Notes: a model not told the origin generated them from the letters alone. A DNA stretch of 64,000 bases from an uncultured Holophaga sp. (GCA_963664825.1 OY761614.1:1472001-1536000); one strand, 5' to 3'; positions 13,423 through 64,000 are shown, counted from the first letter of the stretch. Made by a program: numbers and translations.

Positions 13423-14805
13423 TCAACTAATACTGTTAAGGAGGGACTGCACCCGTTTGTGGAAATCCTGGTCCTTCTGCATCCGGTGCTTCACCGAGTC
13501 GATGGCGTTCATCACCGTGCTATGGTGCATGTTATTGAATGATCTACCTATATCACTAAAGGACATGGCCGTGAGCTCCCGGGCGAGGTACATCGCGACC
13601 TGGCGAGGCAGCAGGATAGCTTGTTGCCTGGATCTCTTCTTCATGAGGTCCATGTAAGCGATGTTGTACGTCTCCGCCGTCATCCTACAGATGCGCTCCA
13701 GAGAGACGCCTGAAGTGGCCTCTTCCCCTGTTTGACCCAGGAAGGCTTGGTGGGCGATCTCGAGGCTGGGTGGTACCCCCAGGAAGCTGCTTTGAAATAC
13801 CACCCTGGTCAGGAGGCCTTCCAGGTCTCGGACACTCCCTTTGGCCTTGTGGCCGATGAAGGTGAGCACATCCTCTGGAACCGGTGGGAGGTCCTTGAAG
13901 ACTTCGTCCTCCAATTTTTTCTTAAGGATGGCCACCCGGGTTTCGAAATCCGGGGGTTGGATGTCGGCCGTGAGGCCCCATTTGCACCGGGTGCGAAGAC
14001 GGTCATGGAGCCCTTCTAGGCGCTCTGGTGGCTTATCAGACGTGATGACGATGGTTTTCCCGTATTGAAGTAGATATTCCAAGATGTAGAAGATTTCTTC
14101 CTGGGTGCGCTCCATGCGGCCGAGGGTCTGCACGTCATCTAAGAGCAGGATATCGTTCTGCTGGTATTTCTTCCGCAGGGCGTCTGTGCTCTTAGTTTTG
14201 ATGGCCACCGTGAATTCATTGAAGAAATTATCCACCTTGAGATAGGCCGCCTTCAGGCTGGGGTTGCGGGCTAGGAGCCCCTTCCCGATGCCGATCATGA
14301 GATGGGTCTTTCCCAGCCCCGAACCGCCATAAATAAAAAGCGGATTCATATTGAGCGTGGCATTGGACTTGCCATGATTTTCTACGACGGCGTTGGCTGC
14401 CGCGAAGGCCAACTGGCTCCCGGGGCCCACCACGAAGCGATCCAGGGTGTAGCGGTGGAAACCCTGGGGAAAAGGGGAATCCGGATTGGCGCTCTCCGCA
14501 GGAGATGCGGCCTTGCCTTTTCCGGTCGCCTTCGGCGCAGGAATTGGCGCGTCCCCTGCGATCGTGAAGGCGAGGCGGAGCTGCGGCATGTCGCATTGGA
14601 CGAGCGCATCGTGGAATTCCTCGGCCAACTGCTGCTCGATCCAGACCCGAGCCGAAGGGCTGGATGTCTGAATCCACAGGGTTGTGCCATCGAAATTGAT
14701 GGCACGGCAGGGCTCGATCCAGTCCTGGAAGGTCCTCTCAGGGAGTCTAGACGCGAGACCCTTTCGGAGAGAGTCCCAGATTGCTTGTGGGTCATTCGCA
14801 GACAT
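13423..14805 (-). CDS. dnaA: Chromosomal replication initiator DnaA
   Basis: NPLFIYGGSGLGKTHL (Walker A), LLLDDVQ, TQEE.F, PRQVAMYL, HSTV; ATG at 14805. Confidence 0.97.
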   Translation of the reverse strand: MSANDPQAIWDSLRKGLASRLPERTFQDWIEPCRAINFDGTTLWIQTSSPSARVWIEQQLAEEFHDALVQCDMPQLRLAFTIAGDAPIPAPKATGKGKAASPAESANPDSPFPQGFHRYTLDRFVVGPGSQLAFAAANAVVENHGKSNATLNMNPLFIYGGSGLGKTHLMIGIGKGLLARNPSLKAAYLKVDNFFNEFTVAIKTKSTDALRKKYQQNDILLLDDVQTLGRMERTQEEIFYILEYLLQYGKTIVITSDKPPERLEGLHDRLRTRCKWGLTADIQPPDFETRVAILKKKLEDEVFKDLPPVPEDVLTFIGHKAKGSVRDLEGLLTRVVFQSSFLGVPPSLEIAHQAFLGQTGEEATSGVSLERICRMTAETYNIAYMDLMKKRSRQQAILLPRQVAMYLARELTAMSFSDIGRSFNNMHHSTVMNAIDSVKHRMQKDQDFHKRVQSLLNSIS

Positions 14806-24081: not shown

Positions 24082-25206
24082 CTAATGGCCCAGGACCTCC
24101 CACACGCCCCCCTGGAAATCCCAGCGCGCTTGCAGCGCTGGCAGGGTCTGCAGATCCAGTGCCAGTGGGGATCCGCCCAAGGGACGCTCTACGCTGAAAC
24201 GGTGGAATTCATCCACCAGACCCTGCTCTAGGAGTTGGGTGGCGAGGGTGCCCCCCCCTTCGAAGAGCACGCGGCCCAGGCCCATGGCGGCCAGCTCGTG
24301 CAACAGGTGTCGCAAACTGCATCCCCCGGGGCCCGGGGGGACCCGGAGATCCTCGACGCCGGGGATGGGGCGCGCCTCGCCTGTGGTGACGCGGAGGGCA
24401 GGCTGGCCCTCGACGGGGGCCCAGATCCTCTGGGAGGGGGGCAGGAGGCCGCGACTATCCAGCACGATCCTGTGGAAGGTGCGATGGGGTAGTGTAGGAG
24501 CGGGCCAGCGGTCCGTGAGCAGGGGATCGTCCACCTCGACCGTATGCCGGCCGACCACGATGGCTTCGGCCGCCCGCCTCAGGGCGTGGGCGAATCCTTG
24601 GATCTCGGGAGGGGTCACCTGAGTGTTCTGGCCTTCGGGGCCCAGGGCCCCATCCGAACCCAAGGCCAGTTTGAGGACCACCCAGGGGAGACCCGTGCCA
24701 ATCAGCTTGAAGAAGGGGGCATGGAAACGGGTGCAGGCCCCTTGGAGGCAGCCCTCCAGGACTTCGACGCCGTGGGATCTGAGGAGGGCGAAGCCGCCCC
24801 CATCCACCCGGGGGTTGGGATCCCGGGCACCCACCACCACGCGGGTGATGCCCGAGCGGATGAGGGCCTCGGTGCAGGGAGGCGTCCTCCCGTGATGGCA
24901 GCAGGGTTCCAACGTCACGTAAGCCGTGGCGCCTCGGAGCGTTTCGCCCCGCCCCTCTGCGTCCCTCAAGGCCATGATCTCCCCGTGGGGGTCTCCGGCC
25001 CTTGTGTGGACGCCGCGCCCCAGGATGCGGCCGTCCCGGACGAGGAGGCAGCCTACGGGGGGGTTGGGGCTGGAGAGGCCGACGCCCTTCATGCCTTCCC
25101 GGAGGGCCAGGGCCATGAAGTGATCGGAGCCCGTCTGGGCCTCGGGATCGGGCCACGGGCCGCCCGTGGCGAGTCCCCAGGCCGAGTCGGAGGACAGATC
25201 AGCCAA
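24082..25206 (-). CDS. ribD: Riboflavin biosynthesis deaminase/reductase RibD
   Basis: PNPPVGC, HGE, TLEPCCHHGRTPPC, DPNP, EGGG; probable TTG start at 25206 with GGAGG SD, overlapping the ftsY end. Confidence 0.93.
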   Translation of the reverse strand: MADLSSDSAWGLATGGPWPDPEAQTGSDHFMALALREGMKGVGLSSPNPPVGCLLVRDGRILGRGVHTRAGDPHGEIMALRDAEGRGETLRGATAYVTLEPCCHHGRTPPCTEALIRSGITRVVVGARDPNPRVDGGGFALLRSHGVEVLEGCLQGACTRFHAPFFKLIGTGLPWVVLKLALGSDGALGPEGQNTQVTPPEIQGFAHALRRAAEAIVVGRHTVEVDDPLLTDRWPAPTLPHRTFHRIVLDSRGLLPPSQRIWAPVEGQPALRVTTGEARPIPGVEDLRVPPGPGGCSLRHLLHELAAMGLGRVLFEGGGTLATQLLEQGLVDEFHRFSVERPLGGSPLALDLQTLPALQARWDFQGGVWEVLGH

Positions 25207-52005: not shown

Positions 52006-53943
52006 GTGGTCACGAAACGATCGCCTATACTGAACCCTCCAGGAATCCCCATGAACCCTTCGGAGCCGATACCAGCCGTTCCTCCGCCCGAGCGGATTTT
52101 TGCCGCAGGTTTTTCTCCGGCCGGGATGAAGCAATTGATCCGGGCCTTTCCGGGTTTGGGGACCCTGATCGATGTCTCCCATGTCGGAGATGCCGATTTC
52201 GGAGTCATGAAGCCTGGCCCTCGGGATGTCTTCATCCTGGATAGCGGTTCCTTCAAGGAAGAGAATACTTCCTGGCTTCAGGGGTGCCTCGTCCAGATGC
52301 CGACGCTACCGAGCCTCGTCCGGGTCCCGCGGCAGGAAGCTGCGGGACTGCAGCGCTTTCTGCGCCTGGGCTTCGATGAGACTTTCTGGACGTTCAAGGA
52401 ACTCGCCCTGGCGCTGGCGCGTGCCTCCGCGCGAAGGCAGGCGGAGAGGGGCATCCATCCCGCGTTGTTCGTGGGTGGAGCGGCCGGGAAATTTGAGGGT
52501 CTGTTCCCGAACCTCTACGACTGGATCTACGTGATCAACGTGGCCGAGGATGGGACTTTCACCTTCGAGACGGTCAATCCCCCCTTGGGAGCCGGGTCCG
52601 GTTTTCTCAACCCCGATTTCTGTGGCAGGAAACCAGAGGACTGCCTCTCCAAGGTGAGTGGCCCCCTCCTCTGTTCCCACTTCGCGGCGGTTCTATCGGC
52701 GGGCTGCCCTCTTCAGTTCGAAGAGGAACATGCCGTTGAGGGTCGACCTCGGAATTTCCGCACCATTCTCACACCGGTCCACAACAAGTGGGGTCGGATT
52801 CATCGCATCGCGGCGATTTCGCGCGATATTACGGCCCTGAAGGAGGCTCAGGCGGCGCTCCATGCCAGCGAGGAACGTTTAAATCTGGCCCTGGAGGGCA
52901 CGCAGCAGAGCCTCTGGGACTGGGATCTGGTGAGTGGCGAAGTCTTCCGCAGTCCTCGCTGGCACTCCATGCTGGATCGCGAACCGGGGGAAATTGGGCC
53001 CACTCTGGAAGCGGGTTTTGAACAGATCCATCCCGATGATCGGGCCCAGGTCGAAGGTGCGATGAACGCGCACCTCGAGGGTCGACAGGCCCGGTTTCAG
53101 GCCGAGTATCGCCTCCGGACCCGGGGCGGTGAATGGATCTGGGTCTTTGATGCGGGGAAGGTCGTGGCTTGGGACGCGGAGGGACAACCTTCGCGTATGG
53201 CCGGCATGTGTACCGACATCACGGAGCGCCGGAGGGCCGAAGAATCCCTCCGGGCCCTGGTGGGCGGTGTGGTTCATGAGATTCGCAACCCCGTCTATGG
53301 CATCTCCATCAACCTGGATGCCCTGGAAGCGACCTTCGGGGAGGAGCCCCGCTATCGTCCCTTCGTCTTCGCGCTTAGGGAGAGTGCCGAGCGTATCGCC
53401 AGCCTCATGAATGACCTTAAGGATTACGGTGAGCCTCGGACTCTGAATCCGGAGCCCTGCCCCGTGCTCCCCCTATTGGAAGAGTCGGCTCGTGCCTGCG
53501 AGGGGCTGGTTGCGGAGCGCAAATCCCACCTGCGCATGGAGCTCGAAGAACCCCAATTGGTCCTGCCGCTGAACGCACGCCGCATGCACCAAGTCTTCCG
53601 GAATCTCTTCGAGAACGCCCTTCAGCATTCCTCAGTGGGCCAGGAAGTCCTTCTGCGGGGGCGCCGCGAATATGTGGAGGGCCAAGAATGGTGGGTCTTC
53701 ACAATCGAGGACCAGGGGCCTGGGTTTGCTCCGGACGCGATGGCGCGTGCCTTCGAGCCATTCTTTACGCGGCGCAAGGGGGGTACGGGTCTGGGGCTCT
53801 CTATCGTCAAGCGGGTAGTGGAGGAACACGGTGGGAGCGTCGAGGTCGCAAATCGGCTGGAGGGTGGGGCGATCATCACGGTGAAACTGCCTGCGCCTCG
53901 CCATTGGGGGTTTCTCATGAAGGAGGCGCAGGATGTCGTCTAA
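52006..53943 (+). CDS. Soluble PAS-domain sensor histidine kinase (start uncertain, possibly 52051)
   Basis: Two PAS/PAC regions (ISRDIT; WDWD...IHPDD...EYRLR...TDITER), HEIRNP, NLFENA, DQGPG, FFT, GTGLGL; no TM helix. Confidence 0.93.
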   Translation: MVTKRSPILNPPGIPMNPSEPIPAVPPPERIFAAGFSPAGMKQLIRAFPGLGTLIDVSHVGDADFGVMKPGPRDVFILDSGSFKEENTSWLQGCLVQMPTLPSLVRVPRQEAAGLQRFLRLGFDETFWTFKELALALARASARRQAERGIHPALFVGGAAGKFEGLFPNLYDWIYVINVAEDGTFTFETVNPPLGAGSGFLNPDFCGRKPEDCLSKVSGPLLCSHFAAVLSAGCPLQFEEEHAVEGRPRNFRTILTPVHNKWGRIHRIAAISRDITALKEAQAALHASEERLNLALEGTQQSLWDWDLVSGEVFRSPRWHSMLDREPGEIGPTLEAGFEQIHPDDRAQVEGAMNAHLEGRQARFQAEYRLRTRGGEWIWVFDAGKVVAWDAEGQPSRMAGMCTDITERRRAEESLRALVGGVVHEIRNPVYGISINLDALEATFGEEPRYRPFVFALRESAERIASLMNDLKDYGEPRTLNPEPCPVLPLLEESARACEGLVAERKSHLRMELEEPQLVLPLNARRMHQVFRNLFENALQHSSVGQEVLLRGRREYVEGQEWWVFTIEDQGPGFAPDAMARAFEPFFTRRKGGTGLGLSIVKRVVEEHGGSVEVANRLEGGAIITVKLPAPRHWGFLMKEAQDVV

Positions 53944-55285
53944 GCCCAAGATCCTCCTCATCGAGGATGATCCCTCCGTGCGCCACGGAATGGCGGCCTT
54001 CCTGCGGGCCAATGATCTGGACGTGGAGGAGGCCGAGGACTGCAAGCAGGCCATGGGACTCTTCCGGGCGGGCAACCACGATGTGGTGGTGGCCGACTAC
54101 AGCCTGCCGGATGGGACCTCGCTGGATATCCTTCCCCAGGTGAAGAAACTCAGCGAGGACACGCCCTTCATCATCCTTACGGCCCACGGTTCCATCGACC
54201 TAGCCGTGAGGGCCATCAAGGAGGGGGCCGAGCAGTTCCTGACGAAGCCTGTCGAGTCAAAGGCGCTCCTGGTCCTTGTGCAGCGCCTCCTGCAACAGCA
54301 GCGCCTGAGGAAGCGTCAGTTGGTGGTTGCTCGGGAACAACCCGCCGCCCTAAATCCCTTCCTCGGCGCCAGCCCGGCCATCCTGAACCTCCAGGAACAA
54401 GCCCGCCGCATGCTTGAGTGGGATAGTCCCATCCTCATCCTGGGGGAGACCGGCGCCGGAAAGGGCGTGCTCGCGCGCTGGATCCATGCGAACGGACCCA
54501 GGCGCGAGGAGGCCTTCGTCAACCTCAACTGTGCCGGGCTCAGCCGGGAACTGCTGGAGACGGAGCTCTTCGGCCACGAGCGAGGCGCCTTCACCGGGGC
54601 GGTCAACGCGAAACAGGGGCTCCTGGAAGTCGGACACAGGGGTGTCGTCTTCCTCGATGAGATTGGGGATATGGATCCCGCCATTCAGCCCAAGCTGCTG
54701 AAGGCCCTTGAGGAAAAGACCTTCCGGCGACTGGGCGATGTGCGCGATCGCCATGTGGATGTCCGTCTCATCGCCAGTACGAACCTGGATCTGGAAGAAG
54801 CCGTGCGCACCAAGAAATTCCGGGACGATCTCTACTATCGGGTCAGCACCCTCACCCTGCGCCTTCCGCCCCTGCGGGAGCGCCCCGAGGATATCCCCGT
54901 CCTGGCCAAGGCCATCCTGGGGAATGTGTGCGTGCGCATGGGAAAGGCGAAGGTGGAGCTCCGGTCCGATGCGGAGGCGCTTCTCCTGCATTATCCCTGG
55001 CCCGGCAATATCCGCGAACTGGCCAATGTCCTGGAACGGGCCATGATCCTGCAGCGGGGGGAGCGCCTCGAAGCGATCGATCTGGGTCTTCAGCCCCGGC
55101 GGAATTCGACTTCCGATGCGGGTGATAGTCTCCTCTCCCTGCGGGAGATGGAACGGCTTCATGTGGAGCGGGTCCTGCAGCGCACCAGTGGGAATGTGAC
55201 GGAGGCGGCCCAGATCTTGGGGTTGGCTCGGCGCACGCTCTACGATCGGATAAAGGCCCTGGGGATTGCCTCGCTGAAGGATTGA
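53933..55285 (+). CDS. Sigma-54-dependent response regulator (NtrC family)
   Basis: Receiver (IEDD, ADYSLPDG, TAHG, KP), GETGAGK, GAFTGA, FLDEI, WPGNIREL, C-terminal Fis-type HTH. Confidence 0.96.
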   Translation: MSSKPKILLIEDDPSVRHGMAAFLRANDLDVEEAEDCKQAMGLFRAGNHDVVVADYSLPDGTSLDILPQVKKLSEDTPFIILTAHGSIDLAVRAIKEGAEQFLTKPVESKALLVLVQRLLQQQRLRKRQLVVAREQPAALNPFLGASPAILNLQEQARRMLEWDSPILILGETGAGKGVLARWIHANGPRREEAFVNLNCAGLSRELLETELFGHERGAFTGAVNAKQGLLEVGHRGVVFLDEIGDMDPAIQPKLLKALEEKTFRRLGDVRDRHVDVRLIASTNLDLEEAVRTKKFRDDLYYRVSTLTLRLPPLRERPEDIPVLAKAILGNVCVRMGKAKVELRSDAEALLLHYPWPGNIRELANVLERAMILQRGERLEAIDLGLQPRRNSTSDAGDSLLSLREMERLHVERVLQRTSGNVTEAAQILGLARRTLYDRIKALGIASLKD

Positions 55286-55320
55286 GCGGCCCCCCGCACA
55301 GTTCATGCGGATTCCCGCAC
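55286..55320. promoter_or_regulatory. Putative upstream activator sequence 1 (tandem GCGG-N4-CCGC)
   Basis: GCGG-CCCC-CCGCAC at 55286 and GCGG-ATTC-CCGCAC at 55307, 21 bp apart; the same geometry recurs at 59714/59735. Confidence 0.75.
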
Positions 55321-55395
55321 AAGAGTGGGGTGGGCGAAGGGACTATGGCAACTGGACCTCTTGTTGTTTAAGCAGGTTAGCCATGGTCTGGGAGA

Positions 55396-55411
55396 TGGCC
55401 CGCCCTTTGCG
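55396..55411 (+). promoter_or_regulatory. Sigma-54 -24/-12 promoter
   Basis: TGGCCCG-CCCT-TTGCG; GG at 55397 and GC at 55409 at the canonical spacing. Confidence 0.8.
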
Positions 55412-55524
55412 TGAGCAGGCCAACCCCGGGTCTGCACCCAGGACGAGCCCTTTTTATCCATCTGCCCGCTTGAATTCGAGTGCCCAAGGGCAGCCGAACC
55501 ACTCCATCCATAGGAGGCAGGAAC

Positions 55525-56478
55525 ATGATCAGGAATGTCCTAAGCGGTTTACTGGTTGCGGGGCTAGTGGCCGCTCCCGGGAGTGTGTCCTGCGCGCAGG
55601 AACAACCCGGAGCGCTGTTCGCCAAGACAGTGGCGAAATATCCTGCCCCTCAGCTGGCGGATGTCGGGGGGCGAGAATACAAATGCCTCTTCAATATCGA
55701 GAAATTTTCCGAGGATCCCGATGTGGCCTTCAAGGATCTATGGGGCAAGATCAAGGCTGCTTCCGCCCAGGCCGGTTTCAAGGTGGAACAAAAGGAGAAG
55801 AAACACCTCAAGGTTGAGCGAGCCATCAAGGAATATTTCGATACGCCTGGGCAGGACCTGTGGAAGAAGGGCTATATTCTCCGCCTCACGACCAAGTTCA
55901 AGGACGGAGAAGAATCCCTGGCCGTGACCGTGAAGGCCACCGATGAGGACGCGGTTCGCTGCCTGTCCACGCCTCTGGTCGTGGTGGGGGCCAAGGGCAA
56001 GACCGAGGCCGAGGGGAATGTGGGTTTTGGTCCCCAGGGCCTCCTACGGGAGTACATCGAGAAGGGTTCCACCTTCCCCGTGACCCTCGAGCAGCTGGGA
56101 GCCCTGACGCTGGGTGATTTCGGCAAGTTCATGCCGGAACTCCTGAAGCTCGGGCTTCCCGCGGGCACGAAGCTCGTGGGCACGAAGGCCTATACATATC
56201 GTGTGAAACCCGGCGCCATCCTGCTGCCGGGCACCGAACCCTGCGGGATATCCATGGAAGCCTGGGCCCACAAGGATGGCGGCAAGCCCTTCCTCATGGA
56301 CTTCTCCTTCGGATATGGGGATCTCGACTTCTATGAATCCAGGGAAGTCCACGGGGCAGGCGAGGCCTTCATGCTCAAGGTCATCAACGGAGAGCTCAAG
56401 AACTTCCTCATGCCCAGTTCCGGGAGTTTCGGAGGCTCCAAGGTCCGCGTGCTCATGAATAGGCCCATTTCCAACTAG
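55525..56478 (+). CDS. Exported CYTH/triphosphate-tunnel-like protein
   Basis: AGGAGG SD; signal peptide; REYK, YFDT....L...GYILRL and VTVK resemble CYTH motifs. Confidence 0.7.
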   Translation: MIRNVLSGLLVAGLVAAPGSVSCAQEQPGALFAKTVAKYPAPQLADVGGREYKCLFNIEKFSEDPDVAFKDLWGKIKAASAQAGFKVEQKEKKHLKVERAIKEYFDTPGQDLWKKGYILRLTTKFKDGEESLAVTVKATDEDAVRCLSTPLVVVGAKGKTEAEGNVGFGPQGLLREYIEKGSTFPVTLEQLGALTLGDFGKFMPELLKLGLPAGTKLVGTKAYTYRVKPGAILLPGTEPCGISMEAWAHKDGGKPFLMDFSFGYGDLDFYESREVHGAGEAFMLKVINGELKNFLMPSSGSFGGSKVRVLMNRPISN

Positions 56479-56531
56479 AACCTGGACGACGGGTGACCCG
56501 TGTCCATTTCGGAATGATCCGGAGGAACTTG

Positions 56532-57425
56532 ATGATGCGAAATCTTTACAAGACCCTTCTCGGCGGACTGCTCTTCGGCGCGGCTCTGCCCGGCATGGCG
56601 GAGGATCCGGCCAAGCTGGACGCAATGTTCGGCACCCTCTCACAGCCGGCCTACATCAAGCACTACGAGGCCACCCTCCAGGGGAAGGTGATCCTGAACC
56701 CCTACCTCCAGGCGGCCTCCAAGGATTTCCCCGCCATCCTGGACATCAAGATGGCGCCCTACAACTGGGTCATCGATGCGGAAGGGCGCGTGGCCATTGC
56801 TCCCGAGGCGGCCCATCCCCTGGGGCGGACCTACCCCCAGGGCTTCTTCCGCCCCGAGGACCAATCCAAGCGCAAACCCGGTACCCGGGAGAACTTCGGT
56901 CATGTGTCGATGCTGGGAGGCGCTCCCGGGCGCATCAGCGGGGAGATCCTCTTCGACAAGGAGAGCAGATCCTGGACCATCAACAACAAATCCGGGCGCT
57001 ACAGCAAGCACAACACGGACCGCACAGCCGAGCAGATGTTCCAGGCCGGGAAGCTGATCCGCGAGGTGGTGGATCCCGGCGAAGCCACCTGGGGGCCCGT
57101 GTTCTACCTGCTGGAATATGCGCCGGCGACGGAAGTCGAGAGGCTCATGAAGAGCCCAGAGCTCTCCTACGATGATGTCAAGAAGAAGAGCAGGCCCCAC
57201 GTCATCGTGATGCCGGCCCTGGAGACATCCAAGGCGGAGAAGAAAGCCTTGAGTCTGGAGGAAAAGAAGGCAACGAAGGCCGAAAAGAAGGTGGATACCA
57301 AGGCCGAGAAGAAGTCCGACGCGAAGGTCGAAAAGAAGGATGACGCCAAGGCCGAGAAGAAGCCCGACGCGAAGGTGAAGAAGGTCAAGAAGCCCAAGGC
57401 TGCCCAGAACGACGATCCATCCTAG
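56532..57425 (+). CDS. Exported hypothetical protein with a Lys/Glu/Asp-rich repeat tail
   Basis: GGAGGA SD; signal peptide; GHVSMLGG...SGE...NNKSGRY core; KAEKKxDx repeats. Confidence 0.8.
   Translation: MMRNLYKTLLGGLLFGAALPGMAEDPAKLDAMFGTLSQPAYIKHYEATLQGKVILNPYLQAASKDFPAILDIKMAPYNWVIDAEGRVAIAPEAAHPLGRTYPQGFFRPEDQSKRKPGTRENFGHVSMLGGAPGRISGEILFDKESRSWTINNKSGRYSKHNTDRTAEQMFQAGKLIREVVDPGEATWGPVFYLLEYAPATEVERLMKSPELSYDDVKKKSRPHVIVMPALETSKAEKKALSLEEKKATKAEKKVDTKAEKKSDAKVEKKDDAKAEKKPDAKVKKVKKPKAAQNDDPS
57276..57383 (+). repeat. 24-bp coding tandem repeat (~4.5 copies; KAEKKxD[T/A])
   Basis: AAGG[C/T]CGA[A/G]AAGAAG units start at 57276, 57300, 57324 and 57348, with a partial unit at 57372. Confidence 0.85.
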
Positions 57426-57471
57426 GCCTCGCTCGGATCCCTTTCCTTCAAAACCAAGGAGCTGAAACAAC

Positions 57472-58236
57472 ATGAAAAAGAACTGGCTGAATCCTTATGG
57501 GTACGCGATTGCCCTCGCCTTGGGCGCCTGCCTGAGCCTTCCAGGGCTCGCCCAGACCACCGACCAGGTGCATGTGGTCAAGGGTGAGAAGAACTTCCTG
57601 ACGGGCTATGACCCCGTCAATGTGGATGGGACGGTCAACGCCATTGTCGAGATCCCCGCGGGGACCACCGCCAAGTACGAGACCGACACCAAGACGGGGA
57701 TGATGGCGATCGAGCAGAAGAATGGTGCTCCTCGCTTCGTGAAGTATCTCGGCTACCCGGCCAACTACGGCCTCATTCCCCGCAGCGTCCTCTCCAAGGC
57801 CAAGGGCGGTGATGGCGATCCCCTGGACGTGATCGTGCTCGGCGCGGCCATCCCCACAGGCACCGTCGTGAAGTGCCGCGCCCTGGGCGTATTGGTCCTG
57901 GTGGATGGCGGAGAGACGGACGACAAGCTCATCCTGGCCCCCGTGAATTCGCCCTTCGCGACCTGCAAGGGCATCGAGGATCTGGACAAGAAATTTCCGG
58001 GTGTGACCACCATCCTGAAGACCTGGTTCACGTCCTACAAGGGTTATGACAAGGATGGCAAGCTGGTCCTCTCCAGCAAGGGCTTCAAGTCCCGCAAGGA
58101 CGCCATCAAGCTCATCGGAGATGCCGTCCTGGACTACGAGATGTCCGTGACGACCGATGCCGATCGGCGTCCGCTCGACGAGAAGGGCAACCCCAGGCTC
58201 TACCGGTGGCCTCTGGCGAAGAACCTGGGTGAATGA
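57472..58236 (+). CDS. ppa: Family I inorganic pyrophosphatase with signal peptide
   Basis: IVEIPAG..AKYE, YPANYG.IPRS, DGDPLDV, D.GETDDK, WFTSYK; N-terminal AIALALGACLSLPGLA. Confidence 0.9.
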   Translation: MKKNWLNPYGYAIALALGACLSLPGLAQTTDQVHVVKGEKNFLTGYDPVNVDGTVNAIVEIPAGTTAKYETDTKTGMMAIEQKNGAPRFVKYLGYPANYGLIPRSVLSKAKGGDGDPLDVIVLGAAIPTGTVVKCRALGVLVLVDGGETDDKLILAPVNSPFATCKGIEDLDKKFPGVTTILKTWFTSYKGYDKDGKLVLSSKGFKSRKDAIKLIGDAVLDYEMSVTTDADRRPLDEKGNPRLYRWPLAKNLGE

Positions 58237-58333
58237 TTCCGTCCTGACCCGCGAGGGTGATGGGCTGTTTGCCGGGGAGATGGGGCAACCCCTCCCCGGC
58301 ACCCCTGTTCGGCGGCAATTCTAAGAGGATTCC

Positions 58334-58825
58334 ATGTTCAAGAGCGCCCTGCTGGTCCTGCTTTTTTCCCTCGGGCTCATGGCGCAGGAGGGCACGATCA
58401 TCCTGCTGCGCCACGCGGAGAAGACATCGAGGCTGGATTGCGCTGAACTATCCGCCAAGGGCCATCTTCGGGCCGTCTCCCTGGCCGAAGAACTGTCGCC
58501 CATGAGGCCCGTCGCGCTCTTCGCCACGGAATTCATCCGCACTCGGCAGACCCTCGAACCCCTGGCGCGGCGTCTCGCCATTCCGGTCCAGGTGAGGAGG
58601 CGGGATGAGGGAGAGAACCTGGCCCGGGAGATCCTGCAGGAATACCGAGGCCGGACCGTGGTCGTCTGCACCCACTCCGACCGCGTGGCTCCTCTCCTGG
58701 AGGCCTTGGGCCATCCCACCGACTTGGCTGAAGTCCGGGAGTTCGACCGGATCTGGATTCTGCATGTGAGCCCGAATGGCACGACGCGTATCGAGGAACG
58801 CCGGCAGAAGGCTCTGCCTCGGTAG
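58334..58825 (+). CDS. Histidine phosphatase (SixA/PGM superfamily) with signal peptide
   Basis: LLRHAEK, LS.KG..RA, RTRQT, VVCTHS. Confidence 0.88.
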   Translation: MFKSALLVLLFSLGLMAQEGTIILLRHAEKTSRLDCAELSAKGHLRAVSLAEELSPMRPVALFATEFIRTRQTLEPLARRLAIPVQVRRRDEGENLAREILQEYRGRTVVVCTHSDRVAPLLEALGHPTDLAEVREFDRIWILHVSPNGTTRIEERRQKALPR

Positions 58826-58880
58826 ACATGGGGACCTTGGCCTGCCCTGAGTGGGTGGGATTGTCGGTGGAGACCTCCTG

Positions 58881-59741
58881 ATGGATCGCGCGGTTCTTCT
58901 GATGATTGGACTCTCCCTTCCCCTGGCGGGCTGGGGACCCAAGGGCCATCGCATAGCGGCGGAGGGGGCTCTCCGCACCCTCCCGCCGGAGTTGCGGAGC
59001 TGGTATGCGGGTCACGAAACCCGCTTCCAGGAGGCGGCCCTGGCTCCCGACCAGTGGAAGGAGGAGGATCCCAAGGAGGCTGCCCGCCACCATATCCGTG
59101 TCGAAGCCTACGGGGGACCCGATCGGATTCCCTTCGAGGCCGAGGAAGCCATCCGCAGGGCCGGGGACTCGGTATTCGTGATGGCTGGCCAGCTCCCGTG
59201 GGTCATCGGGGACCGGTACCATCGCCTCGTCGAGGCCTTCCGGTCTCGTGACTCCCTGCGTGTGGTCGATGAAAGCGCCTGGCTCTGCCACTATGTGGCC
59301 GATGCCCAGGTTCCCCTGCATACGACACGGAACCATGATGGCAAGAAGACGGGCCAGAAAGGGGTACATGGCCGGTGGGAGAAGGGGCTCGTGGAATGGA
59401 AGATGAAGACGTTGACCGAGCTTCGACCCGCGCGCCCACCCCAGGATCCCTCCCGGGTGGCATGGACTTGGGTGAGTGAGTCCTATGCCCAGGTGCCAGG
59501 GCTCTTGGAGGGCGACCGCGAGGCGCTTCGCCGCGCTGATCCGGTGGATCCGGGGTCTCCCAAAAATGACAGTTACTGGCTTTTCTTTTGGGAACACGAG
59601 CAGGCGTCGGTCGTGCGGCAATTGAGGCGTTCGGCCGAACGCACTGGGGATCTCGTGCTGGCCGCCTGGATGAAGGCCGGGGAACCGTCATGCCTGGCGG
59701 GAAGGGCCTTTGCGCGGGACTCCGCACGGGAAGTGCGGTAA
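58881..59741 (+). CDS. S1/P1 nuclease / Zn-dependent phospholipase C-like protein, exported
   Basis: Signal peptide, then mature WGPKGH; PD, HHI, G.LPW, HYVADAQVPLH, HGRWE Zn ligands. Confidence 0.85.
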   Translation: MDRAVLLMIGLSLPLAGWGPKGHRIAAEGALRTLPPELRSWYAGHETRFQEAALAPDQWKEEDPKEAARHHIRVEAYGGPDRIPFEAEEAIRRAGDSVFVMAGQLPWVIGDRYHRLVEAFRSRDSLRVVDESAWLCHYVADAQVPLHTTRNHDGKKTGQKGVHGRWEKGLVEWKMKTLTELRPARPPQDPSRVAWTWVSESYAQVPGLLEGDREALRRADPVDPGSPKNDSYWLFFWEHEQASVVRQLRRSAERTGDLVLAAWMKAGEPSCLAGRAFARDSAREVR

Positions 59742-59748
59742 TCCGCGC
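59714..59748. promoter_or_regulatory. Putative upstream activator sequence 2 (tandem GCGG-N4-CCGC)
   Basis: GCGG-GACT-CCGCAC at 59714 and GCGG-TAAT-CCGCGC at 59735, 21 bp apart. Confidence 0.75.
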
Positions 59749-59822
59749 GATGCCCAGTGCGAGGGCCTCCCGTTCGTTTCTGTAAGGCTTTATGAATCAA
59801 GGAGAAAGATGCGCGGGCCAGC

Positions 59823-59839
59823 TTGGCATGGCATCTGCT
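59823..59839 (+). promoter_or_regulatory. Sigma-54 -24/-12 promoter
   Basis: TTGGCATG-GCAT-CTGCT; GG at 59825 and GC at 59837. Confidence 0.82.
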
Positions 59840-59924
59840 CAACTCCTTTCCAAGGAAGATCGCTTCCTTCATCCTCTTACTCCCATTCCGCCCTGCGGCG
59901 GTGCCCTGTCCACCAGGAGAACCC

Positions 59925-61283
59925 ATGAAGACCAGCCTTCTCACATCCCTTGTTCTGCTGTTGGCGTTGCCTGTCGGCGCACAGGAGGCCCCGGACACCG
60001 AAAAGCGCATCGCCGATCTCGAGAAGAAGATCGAGAAGCTCAGCGCCAAGAAGGAAGAGGCCAAGGAAAGTGGCCTCAGCGTCAAGTTCGGAGGCCGCTT
60101 CCATCTAGATTCCACCTATTTCAATGGGAACGACAACCGGCTGACCAACGGCACCTTCATGCGCCGGGCACGCATCAGTTTCAAGGTGGGCATGGGCAGG
60201 GACTGGGTGGGGGAAGGCGATGTCGATTTCGCCGAAGCCGCCGTCAACATCAAGGATATGTGGGTGGGCTACCAGGGATACAAGAACAGCCTCATCCAGG
60301 TGGGCCAGTTTAAGGCGCCCTTCGGCATGGATACGCTGGGCTCCTCCAACTCCACCTGGCTGATGGAGAGGTCCTACAGCGATATGTGGACACCGGACCG
60401 CCACCTGGGCGTGGGCTATTCCATCTGGGGTGAGCGCTGGCAGGCCAAGGCGAACTTCTTCGGCCAGGCCATCAACGATACGGCCGATGCCCAGGAGTCT
60501 GCTGACACCGCGACGCTTGATACGACAGGGAAAACGCCCAAGTTGGCGACCTATAAGATCGTCGAGGACCATGGCTGGGGTGCCGCCGCGCGCATCACCT
60601 TCGCACCCGTGTTGATCTCCGACACCAAGGCCATTCACCTGGGGATCGCCGCCGTCCAGCGCACGCCCAATGCGGGCGCCTTCGGTGATTATTCCGTGGA
60701 TTTTTCCGGACGCCCGGAGCAAAACAAGGTCTGCAAAGAGAAGTTCCTGAACCTCTCGATGAGCAATGTCGACAAGACCATCCAGTACGGCGCCGAGTTT
60801 GCGGGCGTGTGGAAGGCCTTCTCCTGGCAGAGCGAGTACCAGCAGACCAGGATCAATCGCCGGGAAGCCGTCGGAGCCACGGAAGCTCTCCAGGCCGCCA
60901 GCGTCGTCGATCACAAGTTCTCCACCTACTACGGCCAGGTCTCCTGGATCTTCGGTGGCCAGCGCACGTACGAAGTCAGTGACGGTCTCTTCGGCAAGGT
61001 GTCCCCCTCTTCCAAGCTTGGCGCGTTCGAACTGGTCTTCCGCTACAGCAAGATGGACCAGAACGACCTGACCGCGATCGATCCCGTCACCGGAGGCACC
61101 GCCGCGAATATGGCCGTGGGCCTGACCTGGTATACCAACAAGAACCTCCGCTGGATGCTGAACTACACTCAGGTGAACAACGGTGACTATGCCATGGCCA
61201 ACAAGGCCTACAGCCCCACCGGCGTGAAGCTTCCCAACGACGACTTCGGCTTCACCTCCATGCGCGTCCAGGTGAACTTCTAA
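59925..61283 (+). CDS. OprO/OprP-family phosphate/polyphosphate-selective porin
   Basis: AGGAG SD; signal peptide and coiled coil; GGRFHLD, RRAR, IKD.WV.Y, GQFKAPFGM, MERS, FELVFRYS, GLTWY, C-terminal QVNF. Confidence 0.88.
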   Translation: MKTSLLTSLVLLLALPVGAQEAPDTEKRIADLEKKIEKLSAKKEEAKESGLSVKFGGRFHLDSTYFNGNDNRLTNGTFMRRARISFKVGMGRDWVGEGDVDFAEAAVNIKDMWVGYQGYKNSLIQVGQFKAPFGMDTLGSSNSTWLMERSYSDMWTPDRHLGVGYSIWGERWQAKANFFGQAINDTADAQESADTATLDTTGKTPKLATYKIVEDHGWGAAARITFAPVLISDTKAIHLGIAAVQRTPNAGAFGDYSVDFSGRPEQNKVCKEKFLNLSMSNVDKTIQYGAEFAGVWKAFSWQSEYQQTRINRREAVGATEALQAASVVDHKFSTYYGQVSWIFGGQRTYEVSDGLFGKVSPSSKLGAFELVFRYSKMDQNDLTAIDPVTGGTAANMAVGLTWYTNKNLRWMLNYTQVNNGDYAMANKAYSPTGVKLPNDDFGFTSMRVQVNF

Positions 61284-61377
61284 AAGTTGTCTTGTTCCCC
61301 CGGGAATGCAGCTGGTCCCACATCCGCTCTTCCGGTCCTTCATTTCCTGGGGCTTGGTCATGATTTATGAAGCTCCG

Positions 61378-61965
61378 ATGATCATCCCTCGCTGGGAATG
61401 GCGCACCTTTTCTCCTTCCCTGAGGGCATTAAGAGGCCGTCTGAGGGGCGTCGTCTTCGACGCCCCTCAGGAGAGTTGCGAGACCTACCTGCTCTGCCTG
61501 AGGAGCTCCCACAATGCCAAAATCCGTGGGGATCAGCTCCAACTCAAATGGCGGAAGCAGGTGAGTGACGAGGGCCTGGAACTTTGGGATCCCGTCCTCC
61601 AGTCCCCCTTCCCTCTCGAGGTTCCATTTGTCATGCGCCTTCAGGATGTCTGGGGCATCGAGAATCGGTCCCTTGAGGGAGGTCCTTTCGGGAGGGATGT
61701 TTTCCTCTCGGAGATCGTGGCAGGGAGTCCTGATCTTCGGGCCGTGGTGGTTCGGAAACGCCACGAGGGTTTCGAAGTGCAGGGTGCGAAATGCAAGTTC
61801 ACCGAAATCGCGGGAGTTGTGGAGCCCTTCGAGAGCTTCTGCATCGAGCATGAGGATCCCGAGATCGTGATGCAGGTGATCCGGGAACTGGGCCTGGATG
61901 GCCGCGAAAACATCAATTACCCCAAGGGGCTCAAGCGTGCCCTTGGACTTCTTCCGACACCGTAG
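61378..61965 (+). CDS. Hypothetical cytoplasmic protein, possibly CYTH-like
   Basis: IIPRWEWRTF, E.YL, NAKIR, V.KR, C-terminal NINYPKGLK; start could be 61360. Confidence 0.7.
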   Translation: MIIPRWEWRTFSPSLRALRGRLRGVVFDAPQESCETYLLCLRSSHNAKIRGDQLQLKWRKQVSDEGLELWDPVLQSPFPLEVPFVMRLQDVWGIENRSLEGGPFGRDVFLSEIVAGSPDLRAVVVRKRHEGFEVQGAKCKFTEIAGVVEPFESFCIEHEDPEIVMQVIRELGLDGRENINYPKGLKRALGLLPTP

Positions 61966-61980
61966 GACATAGGAGCCGAC

Positions 61981-62454
61981 ATGGGCAAGGAAATCGAACG
62001 CAAGTACCTCGTGAAACTGGATACCTGGAAACCCCAGGGCGAGGGCATCCACTTCAAACAGGGCTACCTGAACTCTCAGAAAGAACGCGTCGTGCGGGTC
62101 CGCATCGAGGGCCCCAAGGCCAAGCTCACCATCAAGGGCCTCACCAAGGGCGTGACTCGCTCCGAGTTCGAGTACACGATCCCCGTAGAGGATGCTGCCC
62201 TGCTGTTGGACAACCTCTGCGAACAGCCCCTCATCGACAAGCATCGCCACAAGGAAGAGCACCACGGCAAGACCTGGGAGATCGATGTCTTCCACGGGCT
62301 CAACGAAGGGTTGGTTGTGGCCGAGATCGAGCTGGGCAGCGAGGACGAGAAGATCGTCCTCCCGGTTTGGGTGGGCGAGGAGGTCTCCAGCGATCCCCGC
62401 TATTTCAATTCCAATCTCCTGAAGAACCCCTTCACAAGTTGGGCCAAGGCATAA
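61981..62454 (+). CDS. CYTH/TTM-family protein (tripolyphosphatase-like)
   Basis: EIERKYLV (ExExK), QGYL, VRVR, LTIKG, RSEFEY, K.R, WEIDVF, AEIEL, DPRYFNSNL; AGGAG SD. Confidence 0.93.
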   Translation: MGKEIERKYLVKLDTWKPQGEGIHFKQGYLNSQKERVVRVRIEGPKAKLTIKGLTKGVTRSEFEYTIPVEDAALLLDNLCEQPLIDKHRHKEEHHGKTWEIDVFHGLNEGLVVAEIELGSEDEKIVLPVWVGEEVSSDPRYFNSNLLKNPFTSWAKA

Positions 62455-62465
62455 TCTTCGCACTA

Positions 62466-62489
62466 CGGGCCGTCCCACCGGACGGCCCG
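62466..62489 (+). other. Intergenic 10-bp hairpin before the transporter gene
   Basis: CGGGCCGTCC-CACC-GGACGGCCCG; weak U-tract, so possibly a partial terminator or mRNA-stability element. Confidence 0.55.
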
Positions 62490-62505
62490 CTTCATTGGGC
62501 ACTCC

Positions 62506-64000
62506 ATGGCAGCCGTCGATACCCCACAACCCAAGGCCCCCACGCTCCGTGAACTTTTGGACATGGAGAAGATGGTCCTGTCTTCTAAGCCTCGCGAAGC
62601 TCAGAACGCTTCCGAGCGATGGATGCGCTACCTCGGTTTTCCTGGAGGGATCGCGCTCTTCCTTCTCGTGTACCACTTGCCCGCGGGAGCGGGTCTGAGC
62701 GCGGCGGCCCAGGCAGGCGCGGCCTGCTTCGCCATGGCCCTGGTGTGGTGGGTGACTGAGCCCTTCCCGACCTATGTCACGTCCCTGGTGCTGATGTTCC
62801 TGCTGCTCATCACCCGCACCTCCAATGCCAAGGCCATCATGGATGTGCTCGGCATGGAGGTGATCTGGCTGAACCTGCTGGCCTTCATCCTCAGCTCGAT
62901 GCTGGTCAAGACGCGACTCGCCAAGCGCATGGCGCTCTGGCTCGTGCTCCGGTTCGGGCATAAGGCCAATTGGGCGCTCCTGGCCTTCGTGATCCTCCAG
63001 CTCGCGCTCGCGCCCCTGATACCGGCGACGGCTGCGCGTTGCGTGATGACCCTGCCCCTCATGATCGTAGTGGCGGCCATCTACGGATCGACCCAGGAGA
63101 CCCCCAACAACTTTGGCAAGAACCTGATGTTGCTCAATCTTGCCTGCATCTCGGTGCTTTCCTCCGTCACCATGACCGGCAGTTCCGCCAATCTCATCGC
63201 CGTAGGGCTCATCCAAACCATGGGGGGCCATCGCGTCTACTACATGGATTGGATGCGGCTAGGGGCGCCCATCGCCATCCTTACAATGGCTTCGATGTGG
63301 ATGATTGGCCAGAAGCTACTCTTCCGGATCAAGCCCGAGGACCAGGTGCCCCATATCGAAGGTGGGCTCGATCTCGTGCGGGAACAATACGCGAAGATGG
63401 GCCCCTTCAGCTTCGGAGAGAAGAAGGCCCTGGCGATCTTCGGGGTCGTGCTCTTCCTCTGGATGACCGACGTGTTCCACATGCGCTGGTTCGGGGTGGA
63501 GATCAGCGCACCTTTCGCAGCCTTGCTGGGGGCTATTCTCGTGCTGTTCCCGCGCTGGGGCGTCCTCCAGTGGTCGGAAGCCGATATCCCCTGGCATCTG
63601 CTCATCTTCAGCGCCGGAGCCTATGCAGGTGGACTGGCGCTGGATGACACGGGCGCCGCGGAATGGGGTGTGCGGATCCTCTTTGGCGGGATGAACCTTC
63701 GGGCCGTGCCCTTCGGGATTGCCTTTACCGTGGTCATCGCTGTGATGATGTACAGCCACCTGCTCACCACCTCGAAGACGGTGCGCACCCTCATCCTGCT
63801 TCCCATCATCATCACGTTGGCCAAGACCCTGGGTTGGAACCCACTGGCCTTCGCCCTTCCCGCAGCTCTCTGCATTGACTGGGTCGTGGGACTTCCCATC
63901 AGCGGAAAACCCAACGTGATCCTGTTTTCCACCAACCAATACTCGGTGATGGACAATTTCAAATTCGGCATGGTGACCTGCACCCTCGGGGTCGTCTTCC
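62506..64000 (+). CDS. SLC13/DASS-family anion permease (3'-truncated by window edge)
   Basis: Translated by hand from ATG 62506: MAAVDTPQPK...ALVWWVTEPFPTYVTSL...RLAKRMAL...MTGSSAN...LWMTD...IPWHLLIFSAG...LPISGKPN; no stop seen before the edge, so absent from the ORF track. Confidence 0.9.
   Translation, partial: MAAVDTPQPKAPTLRELLDMEKMVLSSKPREAQNASERWMRYLGFPGGIALFLLVYHLPAGAGLSAAAQAGAACFAMALVWWVTEPFPTYVTSLVLMFLLLITRTSNAKAIMDVLGMEVIWLNLLAFILSSMLVKTRLAKRMALWLVLRFGHKANWALLAFVILQLALAPLIPATAARCVMTLPLMIVVAAIYGSTQETPNNFGKNLMLLNLACISVLSSVTMTGSSANLIAVGLIQTMGGHRVYYMDWMRLGAPIAILTMASMWMIGQKLLFRIKPEDQVPHIEGGLDLVREQYAKMGPFSFGEKKALAIFGVVLFLWMTDVFHMRWFGVEISAPFAALLGAILVLFPRWGVLQWSEADIPWHLLIFSAGAYAGGLALDDTGAAEWGVRILFGGMNLRAVPFGIAFTVVIAVMMYSHLLTTSKTVRTLILLPIIITLAKTLGWNPLAFALPAALCIDWVVGLPISGKPNVILFSTNQYSVMDNFKFGMVTCTLGVVF

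Follow-up and report, generated by a model that had tools for sequence, protein, structure and literature searches.

A gene cluster shared between Acidobacteriota and Betaproteobacteria, with predicted tunnel-fold proteins, a secreted pyrophosphatase and a divergent DASS carrier, as a candidate system for uptake and hydrolysis of condensed phosphate

The genome of an uncultured Holophaga sp. (GCA_963664825.1) consists of a single 3.47-Mb contig, from which we analysed a stretch of 64,000 nucleotides (OY761614.1:1472001-1536000, or C1:1472001-1536000), referred to below as the window. From position 52006 to its end the window is occupied by 11 co-oriented genes on the plus strand, designated A to K (Table 1), which encode a two-component regulatory pair, several proteins with secretion leaders, a porin, tunnel-fold proteins of the TTM/CYTH type and a permease of the DASS/SLC13 family, and which we discuss here as a candidate system for the uptake and hydrolysis of condensed inorganic phosphate. 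An original prediction, drawn from the window alone, had described a kinase and an activator with a GAFTGA motif followed by nine co-oriented genes, and a listing of open reading frames together with Pfam and NCBIfam scans found all eleven genes where it had placed them. The point at which that prediction had the cluster end, position 64000, is nothing but the window edge. The K gene stops 71 nt past it, making K a protein of 521 residues in all, and the cluster continues for approximately 8 kb through genes L, M, N, O and P, a chemoreceptor gene and S. On the upstream flank are UbiD, a MacB-type ABC system and an exonuclease, on the downstream flank MurB, none of them related to the cluster. 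Judged by eye from the translations, a leader (a basic stretch, then a hydrophobic one, with an A-x-A-like site at its end) is present on C, D, E, F, G and H and missing from I, J and K. This agrees with the signal peptides that had been predicted for the five proteins C to G (unit 1), although two of the five, F and G, are accessory to the cluster (10 and 6 of the 47 loci described below).

Table 1. Genes and promoter elements of the cluster, in window coordinates
Feature	Position	Strand	Product or element	Matches and remarks
A	52006-53943	+	Sensor histidine kinase, two PAS domains	PAS_4 8.6e-18, PAS_3 5.9e-21, HisKA 1.7e-9, HATPase_c 3.9e-26
B	53933-55285	+	NtrC-type sigma-54 activator	Sigma54_activat 2.5e-60, Response_reg 6.6e-24, HTH_8 5.8e-11
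Putative sigma-54 element	55396-55411	+	-24/-12 element upstream of C	TGGCCC-N5-TTGCG; TGGCCCGCCCTTTGCG
C	55525-56478	+	Secreted protein of predicted TTM/CYTH fold, 317 residues	Pfam: none
D	56532-57425	+	Secreted orphan domain, 297 residues	Pfam: none
E	57472-58236	+	Family I inorganic pyrophosphatase	Pyrophosphatase 5.8e-35
F	58334-58825	+	Small secreted histidine phosphatase	His_Phos_1 4.7e-10; weak PmrG-like NCBIfam match
G	58851-59741	+	Secreted zinc phosphoesterase-like protein of S1/P1 nuclease / phospholipase C type	Zn_dep_PLPC 1.3e-5, S1-P1_nuclease 5.8e-5, both below cut-off
Putative sigma-54 element	59824-59839	+	-24/-12 element upstream of H	TGGCAT-N5-CTGCT; TGGCATGGCATCTGCT
H	59925-61283	+	OprO/OprP-family porin	Porin_O_P 2.8e-42
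I	61360-61965	+	Cytoplasmic TTM-like protein, ~201 residues	Pfam: none
J	61981-62454	+	CYTH protein, NeuTTM type	CYTH 8.6e-13
K	62506 to beyond 64000	+	DASS/SLC13 permease	Na_sulph_symp 3.6e-57 (window part), 5.1e-59 (whole protein)
L	past window		Anchored periplasmic protein, 240 residues	Leader and C-terminal membrane helix
M and O	past window		DUF4010 membrane proteins	Weak MgtC-like N-terminus (E 9e-4, 4e-3)
N	past window, between M and O		TTM-like protein, paralogue of I, 212 residues	
P	past window		Secreted protein	No family assigned
S	past window		Secreted metallophosphatase	Weak ApaH similarity

That these genes should occur together in other genomes had been named beforehand as a test of the grouping. 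Gene C was found in 4 of 40 sampled relatives, in each case together with the rest of unit 1 in unchanged gene order; three of the four have unit 2 (H to K) and the downstream genes as well. A scan taking one genome per species gave 47 loci in several phyla: Acidobacteriota (Holophagaceae/Holophagales 22, Thermoanaerobaculia 8, others 4), Betaproteobacteria (11, in Burkholderiaceae, Rhodoferax, Rubrivivax, Hydrogenophaga and Rhodocyclaceae), Bdellovibrionales (1) and Syntrophus (1). The cluster is thus kept together in at least three bacterial phyla. D is present in 44 of these loci, E in 39, J in 32, K in 31, L in 25, N in 22 and I in 21, while the porin gene H was counted in 24, M in 7 and S in 6. 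The activator gene B is found in 30 loci, which are acidobacterial without exception, and A adjoins it in 28. The trio C-D-E is complete in 39 loci and the pair J-K in 31, with 29 loci having both modules. Together the two modules make up the conserved core; L and N go with J-K, and F, G and S are accessory genes. Of the 12 loci without unit-2 genes, 11 are contigs of 3-14 kb that end early. Identity between phyla amounts to 72-92% for J (counting the true orthologues), 74-94% for K, 77-86% for N, approximately 50-60% for C and 35-45% for L.

The two units need not travel together. One relative of the same genus (L011/L039) carries genes A to G in sequence, but the next 4 kb or so contain neither a porin gene nor I, J or K, so that unit 1 can exist without unit 2 beside it. 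Members of the family formed by I and N (the I/N family) were found in 13 of 201 genomes of a separate phylum sample, from which 8 loci outside the family, all from more distant Acidobacteriota, were fetched. Five of the eight hold a reduced cassette of Porin_O_P, I/N, J and DASS genes without C-D-E; the other three comprise an I gene beside J, an operon of SulP-STAS, I/N-like and Ppx-GppA genes, and a weak match with nothing related around it. As a side observation on the downstream part, the chemoreceptor gene (HAMP and MCPsignal domains; L002:7311-8886, equivalent to C1:1541310-1542885) is split into overlapping frames at 7311-7727 and 7663-8886. The two halves form a single frame in one relative (L009), and the split is due to a frameshift or else to an error of sequencing. 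In L020, too, the cluster includes a chemoreceptor gene.

B combines a receiver domain, an AAA+ domain with GAFTGA and a Fis-type helix-turn-helix, the makeup of a sigma-54 enhancer-binding response regulator. Two -24/-12 elements were located, upstream of C and of H. Matches to a loose sigma-54 pattern are common in the window (29 found against 15.6 expected), so the reality of both elements rests on their conservation across loci. Upstream of C, an element that typically reads TGGCTCG-N4-CTTGCA lies at a distance of 110-210 nt in 22 of the 30 loci that carry B, compared with 5.7% of random 450-nt windows; since related genomes are not independent, this comparison is no formal test. Among the 17 loci without B the element is present in four, three of which are acidobacterial contigs starting too near C to show B. 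Upstream of H it is found in 12 of 24 loci. Promoter conservation thus tracks the activator gene, which supports the sigma-54 control that had been predicted. A scan of 55200-64000 gave no sigma-70-like promoter and four weak terminator-like sites, fewer than in shuffled sequence. Further good sigma-54-type matches elsewhere in the window lie at 24149-24164 on the minus strand (TGGCAC-N5-CTGCA) and at 14358-14373 on the plus strand (TGGCAT-N5-TTGCC).

As to PhoBR, from which the original prediction had set the cluster's own switch apart, Pfam/NCBIfam scans found no PhoBR or PhoU genes in the cluster, and its proteobacterial versions show no convincing Pho box. These versions are without A and B, and one of them (L014) has a divergent LysR gene instead, so that the structural genes form a movable module set under differing regulators. 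A CTAGAATT-N3-CTGTCA(C/T)-like sequence recurs approximately 140-210 nt upstream of J in L016, L025 and L044, with a similar one in L023; it is not a Pho box and may serve the divergent LysR-type regulator as its operator.

Four proteins of the cluster (C, I, N and J) belong by predicted structure or by sequence to the tunnel-fold group. The AlphaFold model of C reaches a mean confidence (pLDDT) of 90.4, and its best Foldseek matches are all TTM proteins (E 3.7e-7, probability 1.00). VIA-align scores against 2gfg, HpAC1, AtTTM3 and YgiF range from Z 11.8 down to 11.1 with about 190 residues aligned. The model of I, built from an alignment of 26 sequences (pLDDT 87.2), likewise finds exclusively TTM/CYTH proteins at the top of the Foldseek list (E 1.5e-6, probability 1.00) and scores Z 12.8-12.2 against 1yem, YgiF and thiamine triphosphatase, the aligned lengths in both sets of comparisons being 150-190 residues. 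Because of these matches the assignment of an eight-stranded tunnel (TTM) fold to the modelled C and I holds, and so the CYTH-like calls, whose structural failure the original prediction had named as grounds for its refutation, have come through. A total of 125 homologues of C were found. Pfam scans gave no CYTH match for C, I or N, and sequence and profile searches of the PDB with I returned nothing; judging from the models, the kinship of C and I to canonical CYTH proteins is visible by structure only.

Chains of the VTC polyphosphate polymerase are also among the structural matches (Z 8.6 for C, 7.8 for I). The likeness extends to the genetic coupling of TTM-fold tunnel domains, such as that of Vtc4, to membrane proteins. 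VTC, however, uses ATP to make polyphosphate (polyP), which it exports to the vacuole, whereas the surrounding porin and secreted hydrolases suggest import and breakdown in the present case; the cluster is also without SPX or VTC-type transmembrane domains, and its tunnel signature differs.

I and N are paralogues (27% identical, E 2e-18) and the only members of their family in this genome. With an E-value limit of 1e-3 the family as a whole numbers 1951 cluster representatives. Twenty-five long relatives were scanned, and in 13 of them a Ppx-GppA domain lies C-terminal to the I/N domain (in one of the 13 below the Pfam cut-off), and it is through this fusion that some homologues of I have come to be named exopolyphosphatase in one source. 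One long relative is a SulP-(STAS)-I/N fusion. A split version of both fusion types is seen in an operon of genome G199 (L079:7863-11200), where SulP-STAS, an I/N-type TTM-like protein and a Ppx/GppA whose start overlaps the preceding gene are followed by an Asp-Al_Ex/TrkA_C permease. We found no description of the I/N-PPX fusion in the literature listings searched. The arrangement recalls Ppx/GppA and the CYTH-CHAD protein YgiF, in that the I/N domain is N-terminal to Ppx-GppA and YgiF is a top structural match for both C and I, but Pfam/NCBIfam scans detected neither Ppx-GppA nor CHAD in the locus itself.

The fusion or adjacency of I/N to Ppx/GppA, a cytoplasmic polyP enzyme, bears on a different reading of the cluster, namely that it serves the turnover of the cell's own polyP. 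The TTM-like and CYTH proteins would degrade internal polyP or inorganic tripolyphosphate (PPPi), the DASS, SulP or DUF4010 proteins would export or exchange phosphate (Pi) or pyrophosphate (PPi), much like the Pi release proposed for polyphosphate-accumulating bacteria, and the periplasmic enzymes would process the released product. DASS-fold carriers can work as exchangers, which counts in favour of such a role, and several loci are in genomes whose record names we interpret as suggesting wastewater-plant bins. In addition, the specific triphosphatase NeuTTM has been suggested to act on internal PPPi in 'metabolite proofreading', according to the accessible part of PMC3440374. On the other hand, the conserved porin, secreted TTM protein and secreted pyrophosphatase fit an inward flow of nutrient better than efflux, Pfam/NCBIfam scans gave no ppk in the cluster, and it would be wasteful to secrete hydrolases for the degradation of an exported product. 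We regard turnover of internal polyP as very unlikely to be the function of the locus.

The Pfam CYTH model itself matches J with 48.9 bits (cut-off 23.2). The alignment of J with NE1496, or NeuTTM, of Nitrosomonas europaea (2fbl/3typ; E 3e-14) spans the whole protein, with EIERK, RxR, TxK, RxExE and ExE all kept, and Y29 and K52 are invariant in 18 sequences. In the text of PMC3440374 that is accessible, NeuTTM is a highly specific inorganic triphosphatase with a Tyr28/Lys52 catalytic dyad, its physiological role is described as unclear and the purpose of a highly specific tripolyphosphatase as 'by no means clear'. With the ExExK signature and the Tyr/Lys dyad retained, J is a candidate inorganic triphosphatase. 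It differs from NeuTTM in that its gene is placed between porin and carrier, whereas J-family genes of about 50% identity are mostly stand-alone. A shared cluster context for the NeuTTM-type genes of Betaproteobacteria was also considered and is ruled out, 29 of the best 30 loci being stand-alone. The J copies of the cluster, with 72-92% identity between phyla, form a distinct lineage that is shared horizontally.

Among the exported proteins, E matches the Pyrophosphatase family with 120.8 bits (cut-off 23.5) and has the DGDPLD (D-x-D-x-x-D) signature. Its NCBIfam equivalog scores stay below cut-off (82 versus 200), as fits a divergent secreted form, and it is the second pyrophosphatase of the genome, the housekeeping enzyme (186 bits) being encoded at C1:3301682. 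H is a clear Porin_O_P member (145.7 bits, cut-off 20.9). The related OprO prefers pyrophosphate. D, which had been listed as an unknown protein of unit 1, indeed matches no family but is in fact part of the core and often fused to the secreted TTM protein: in 17 of 44 loci C and D share one reading frame, the D leader being replaced there by a short Ala-rich linker. An NCBIfam match of D to XopV/AopV is weak (7.2e-6, 25.8 bits against a cut-off of 220), and the ESM Atlas places it in unnamed clusters with a weak lead to DUF8093. The protein is highly conserved and closes with a variable linker rich in Lys, Ala, Pro and Glu followed by KKxKAAxNDDPS, a peptide that does not vary among the 24 aligned homologues, drawn from several phyla (window 57250-57425). 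It looks like a docking or sorting peptide and matches no motif that we recognised.

The secreted phosphoesterases raise the question of whether the phosphorus might instead be scavenged from organic polyphosphates or nucleic acids, such as nucleoside triphosphates (NTPs), dinucleoside polyphosphates, thiamine triphosphate (ThTP) or extracellular DNA. Periplasmic enzymes would then free PPi and Pi, and K would import Pi or a nucleotide-derived anion. G resembles S1/P1 nucleases or phospholipase C, F is a histidine phosphatase and S a metallophosphatase with weak ApaH similarity, but all three are accessory (10, 6 and 6 of 47 loci for F, G and S), whereas the invariant core consists of TTM-type proteins and the pyrophosphatase. 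One source labels a homologue of D 'DNA/RNA non-specific endonuclease', a label that neither Pfam nor the PDB backs. ThTP, NTPs and RNA ends are also substrates of TTM enzymes in the literature, to the extent that the sources are accessible; the nearest solved relative of J, however, is a PPPi-specific enzyme, and Pfam/NCBIfam scans of the cluster found neither a nucleoside or nucleotide transporter nor a 5'-nucleotidase. Such scavenging seems to us unlikely.

K matches the Na_sulph_symp family (201 bits against a cut-off of 27), with an additional Pfam match to CitMHS and a score just short of the cut-off for TIGR00785 (186 versus 198.6, NCBIfam). The SLC13/DASS placement given earlier is thus backed by the Pfam score and narrowly missed by the NCBIfam one, and both Asn-bearing SNT motifs of that family are absent. 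In HMMER alignments to NaCT, NaS1, NaDC1 and NaDC3, the residues P173-A174-T175-A-A-R178 sit at the first SNT and S423-K424-T425-V-R427 at the second motif (SNV or SNT), and the PAT(AAR) and SKT(VR) residues are invariant in 22 orthologues. The Asn of the DASS SNT motif coordinates both Na1 and the substrate, as stated in the accessible text of PMC13394699. Because both of these Asn residues are replaced and Lys and Arg are found there, binding of Na+ and substrate by K is probably non-canonical, with extra positive charge of the kind that a highly charged phosphate anion needs. Against nearly all solved DASS proteins K scores E 1.4e-18 to 1.4e-9, a fly INDY homologue being further away (2.2e-5).

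These residues also bear on the simplest alternative, that of a plain sulfate or di/tricarboxylate uptake operon with unrelated phosphatase genes adjoining by chance. The Na_sulph_symp and CitMHS matches of K and the SulP carriers of the proteobacterial versions would suit it, but both SNT motifs for carboxylate/sulfate and Na+ binding are replaced, the same neighbours recur between phyla, and no genes of sulfate assimilation or carboxylate catabolism were found in the cluster or in the flanks scanned. We consider it highly improbable. Phosphate is no stranger to this fold: yeast Pho90 is a phosphate-specific DASS cotransporter (PMC13394699, accessible part). Pho87, Pho90 and Pho91 are DASS phosphate carriers with an SPX domain, and so resemble the present case in joining a DASS-fold carrier to a phosphate-related cytoplasmic module (PMC13394699 and PMC2710535, in the portions accessible). 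They differ in that K is without an SPX domain and without the Asn of both SNT motifs, the neighbouring modules being TTM-like, and Pho90 is absent from the 14 PDB sequence matches of K at E 1e-3 or better.

Between the K stop and the L start there is a 4-nt overlap in the window's own genome and, as delimited by script, in 21 of 22 loci. Prediction of a K+L complex gave a score of 0.49 against 0.00 for the best control, which faintly suggests that the two may be in contact. A mark of 0.49 was reached by 116 of 157 solved complexes and by 2 of 215 mismatched pairs; scores of 0.60 or below account for just 18 of the 157 solved complexes and for both passing mismatches. The runs agreed on at least 91% of contacts with a partner pLDDT of at least 75, and the benchmark counts hold roughly, as custom alignments were used.

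Returning to condensed inorganic phosphate, a dedicated system for its uptake and hydrolysis is the reading that we favour as the most economical, and we hold it to be somewhat more likely than not. The four tunnel-fold proteins, the extra secreted pyrophosphatase, the phosphate-type porin, the altered DASS carrier and the I/N-PPX link point to phosphoanhydride substrates; the substrate itself and the inward direction of transport are inferred. PPPi would be the most likely substrate, along with PPi and short polyP, and it is because of J that PPPi makes the best single candidate. In Acidobacteriota the cluster's own PAS kinase and NtrC-type activator would turn it on via the two sigma-54 promoters. 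The anion would enter through the OprO/P-type porin H. In the periplasm C, together with D and its basic tail, would trim or bind the chains while secreted E split PPi, with F, G and S as optional extra phosphoesterases. K, probably with the translationally coupled and membrane-anchored L, would import the remaining short polyanion, Lys and Arg occupying the positions of the Na+/substrate-binding Asn of canonical DASS carriers. Once in the cytoplasm, the polyanion would be hydrolysed or held by J, which is NeuTTM-like, and by the TTM-like proteins I and N. The scheme has its nearest parallel in OprO/OprP and Pst/Pho of Pseudomonas, with which it shares an OprO/P-family porin, periplasmic phosphoesterases, an inner-membrane importer and a two-component switch. 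In contrast to that system, however, the cluster has no PstSCAB, PhoU or PhoBR and no Pho box in its proteobacterial versions, its importer is a DASS variant, its hydrolases are TTM proteins and a secreted family I pyrophosphatase, and its control is of the sigma-54 type.

Several observations weigh against this account. The first concerns catalysis. The strand-1 signature ExExK is represented by GREYK (C), RWEWR (I) and RAEFR (N), so that its first Glu is gone from all three while the second Glu and the basic residue are kept. In work on Cet1 and the TTM proteins the first Glu is a metal ligand, and therefore C, I and N may bind their ligands and not hydrolyse them. The CYTH/TTM identity proposed earlier thus stands for the predicted fold of C and I and for J by Pfam, but not for this residue of C and I. 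By hhalign, moreover, comparison with the canonical CYTH alignment of J is not significant (probability 0.2% for I/N and 2.8% for C, the alignments being shallow with an effective number of sequences (Neff) below 3). The second concerns J itself. In a betaproteobacterial order, 49 of the 301 genomes sampled carry J-family genes of 46-57% identity to J, and among the best 30 loci there are 29 with neither K nor N within 1.5 kb. With its family mostly stand-alone elsewhere, J alone is no sign of uptake.

Other difficulties lie with the remaining parts. The distance of K to nearly all solved DASS carriers is about the same, so homology gives no substrate. D has no recognisable family, with no match in Pfam and none in the PDB by sequence or profile. 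Kinase A has no evident membrane segment and looks cytoplasmic, and the best Pho box score in proteobacterial loci, 10/14, is within background. Finally, periplasmic and cytoplasmic hydrolysis appear redundant: were C and E to complete the breakdown in the periplasm, there would seem to be no need for a special importer or for three TTM proteins in the cytoplasm. Neither of the two grounds for refutation that were checked, failure of the CYTH-like calls in structure and lack of co-occurrence in other genomes, came true. Taken as a whole, the interpretation first put forward for this locus is partly supported.

A bolder version, compatible with uptake and hydrolysis of condensed phosphate, would give I and N a place at the membrane. 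N, which has a conserved N-terminal peptide, adjoins three unrelated transporter families in different lineages. It is followed by a DUF4010 protein in Holophagaceae and by a SulP-STAS carrier with a C-terminal cyclic-nucleotide-binding domain in eight proteobacterial loci (L014:6611-8848 and seven others). Given these neighbours, the SulP-I/N fusion, the SulP-I/N-PPX operon, the conservation of N and the Arg in place of the first Glu, I and N could be tunnel modules docked on the cytoplasmic face of anion transporters (K, SulP, M/O), which would thread, hold or clip incoming polyP chains instead of acting as free hydrolases. The result would be an inward-running bacterial counterpart of VTC, a TTM tunnel on a membrane channel, with DUF4010 proteins as a conduit for polyP or condensed phosphate and the basic tail and end peptide of D passing chains on in the periplasm. 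We think it quite unlikely that this picture is right. Class IV adenylate cyclases are found among the CYTH proteins, so that N and the SulP carrier might conceivably also be linked in signalling.

The original prediction knew of no described system of this makeup, and neither the gene set, nor a bacterial periplasmic family I pyrophosphatase, nor tripolyphosphate transport was found described in the literature that we searched, which is poor in subscription journals and leaves their absence unproven. The same searches gave nothing relevant on DUF4010, alone or with CYTH. A nutrient-scavenging locus of porin, periplasmic hydrolases and importer is of a kind already known, and it is the parts that are largely uncharacterised. 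The accessible text of a recent paper (PMC13318637, 2026) states that microbial access to and transport of exogenous polyP 'remains unknown'. The present locus would be one concrete and genetically compact candidate answer to that question, and to the question of what a specific tripolyphosphatase is for, linking as it does a porin, predicted secreted tunnel enzymes, a secreted pyrophosphatase, a DASS carrier with a putatively cationic site and a NeuTTM-like enzyme in an arrangement kept from Acidobacteriota to Betaproteobacteria. Cultured species of Geothrix and Mesoterricola are among the named sources of homologues, so that growth, knockout and transport tests are feasible. Three uncharacterised families are defined, namely the secreted TTM protein C, the orphan domain D and the PPX-associated TTM-like I/N family (approximately 1950 representatives), and DUF4010 membrane proteins may gain a first functional lead. 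Were the bolder version true, DUF4010 would be a so far unrecognised conduit for polyphosphate or condensed phosphate.

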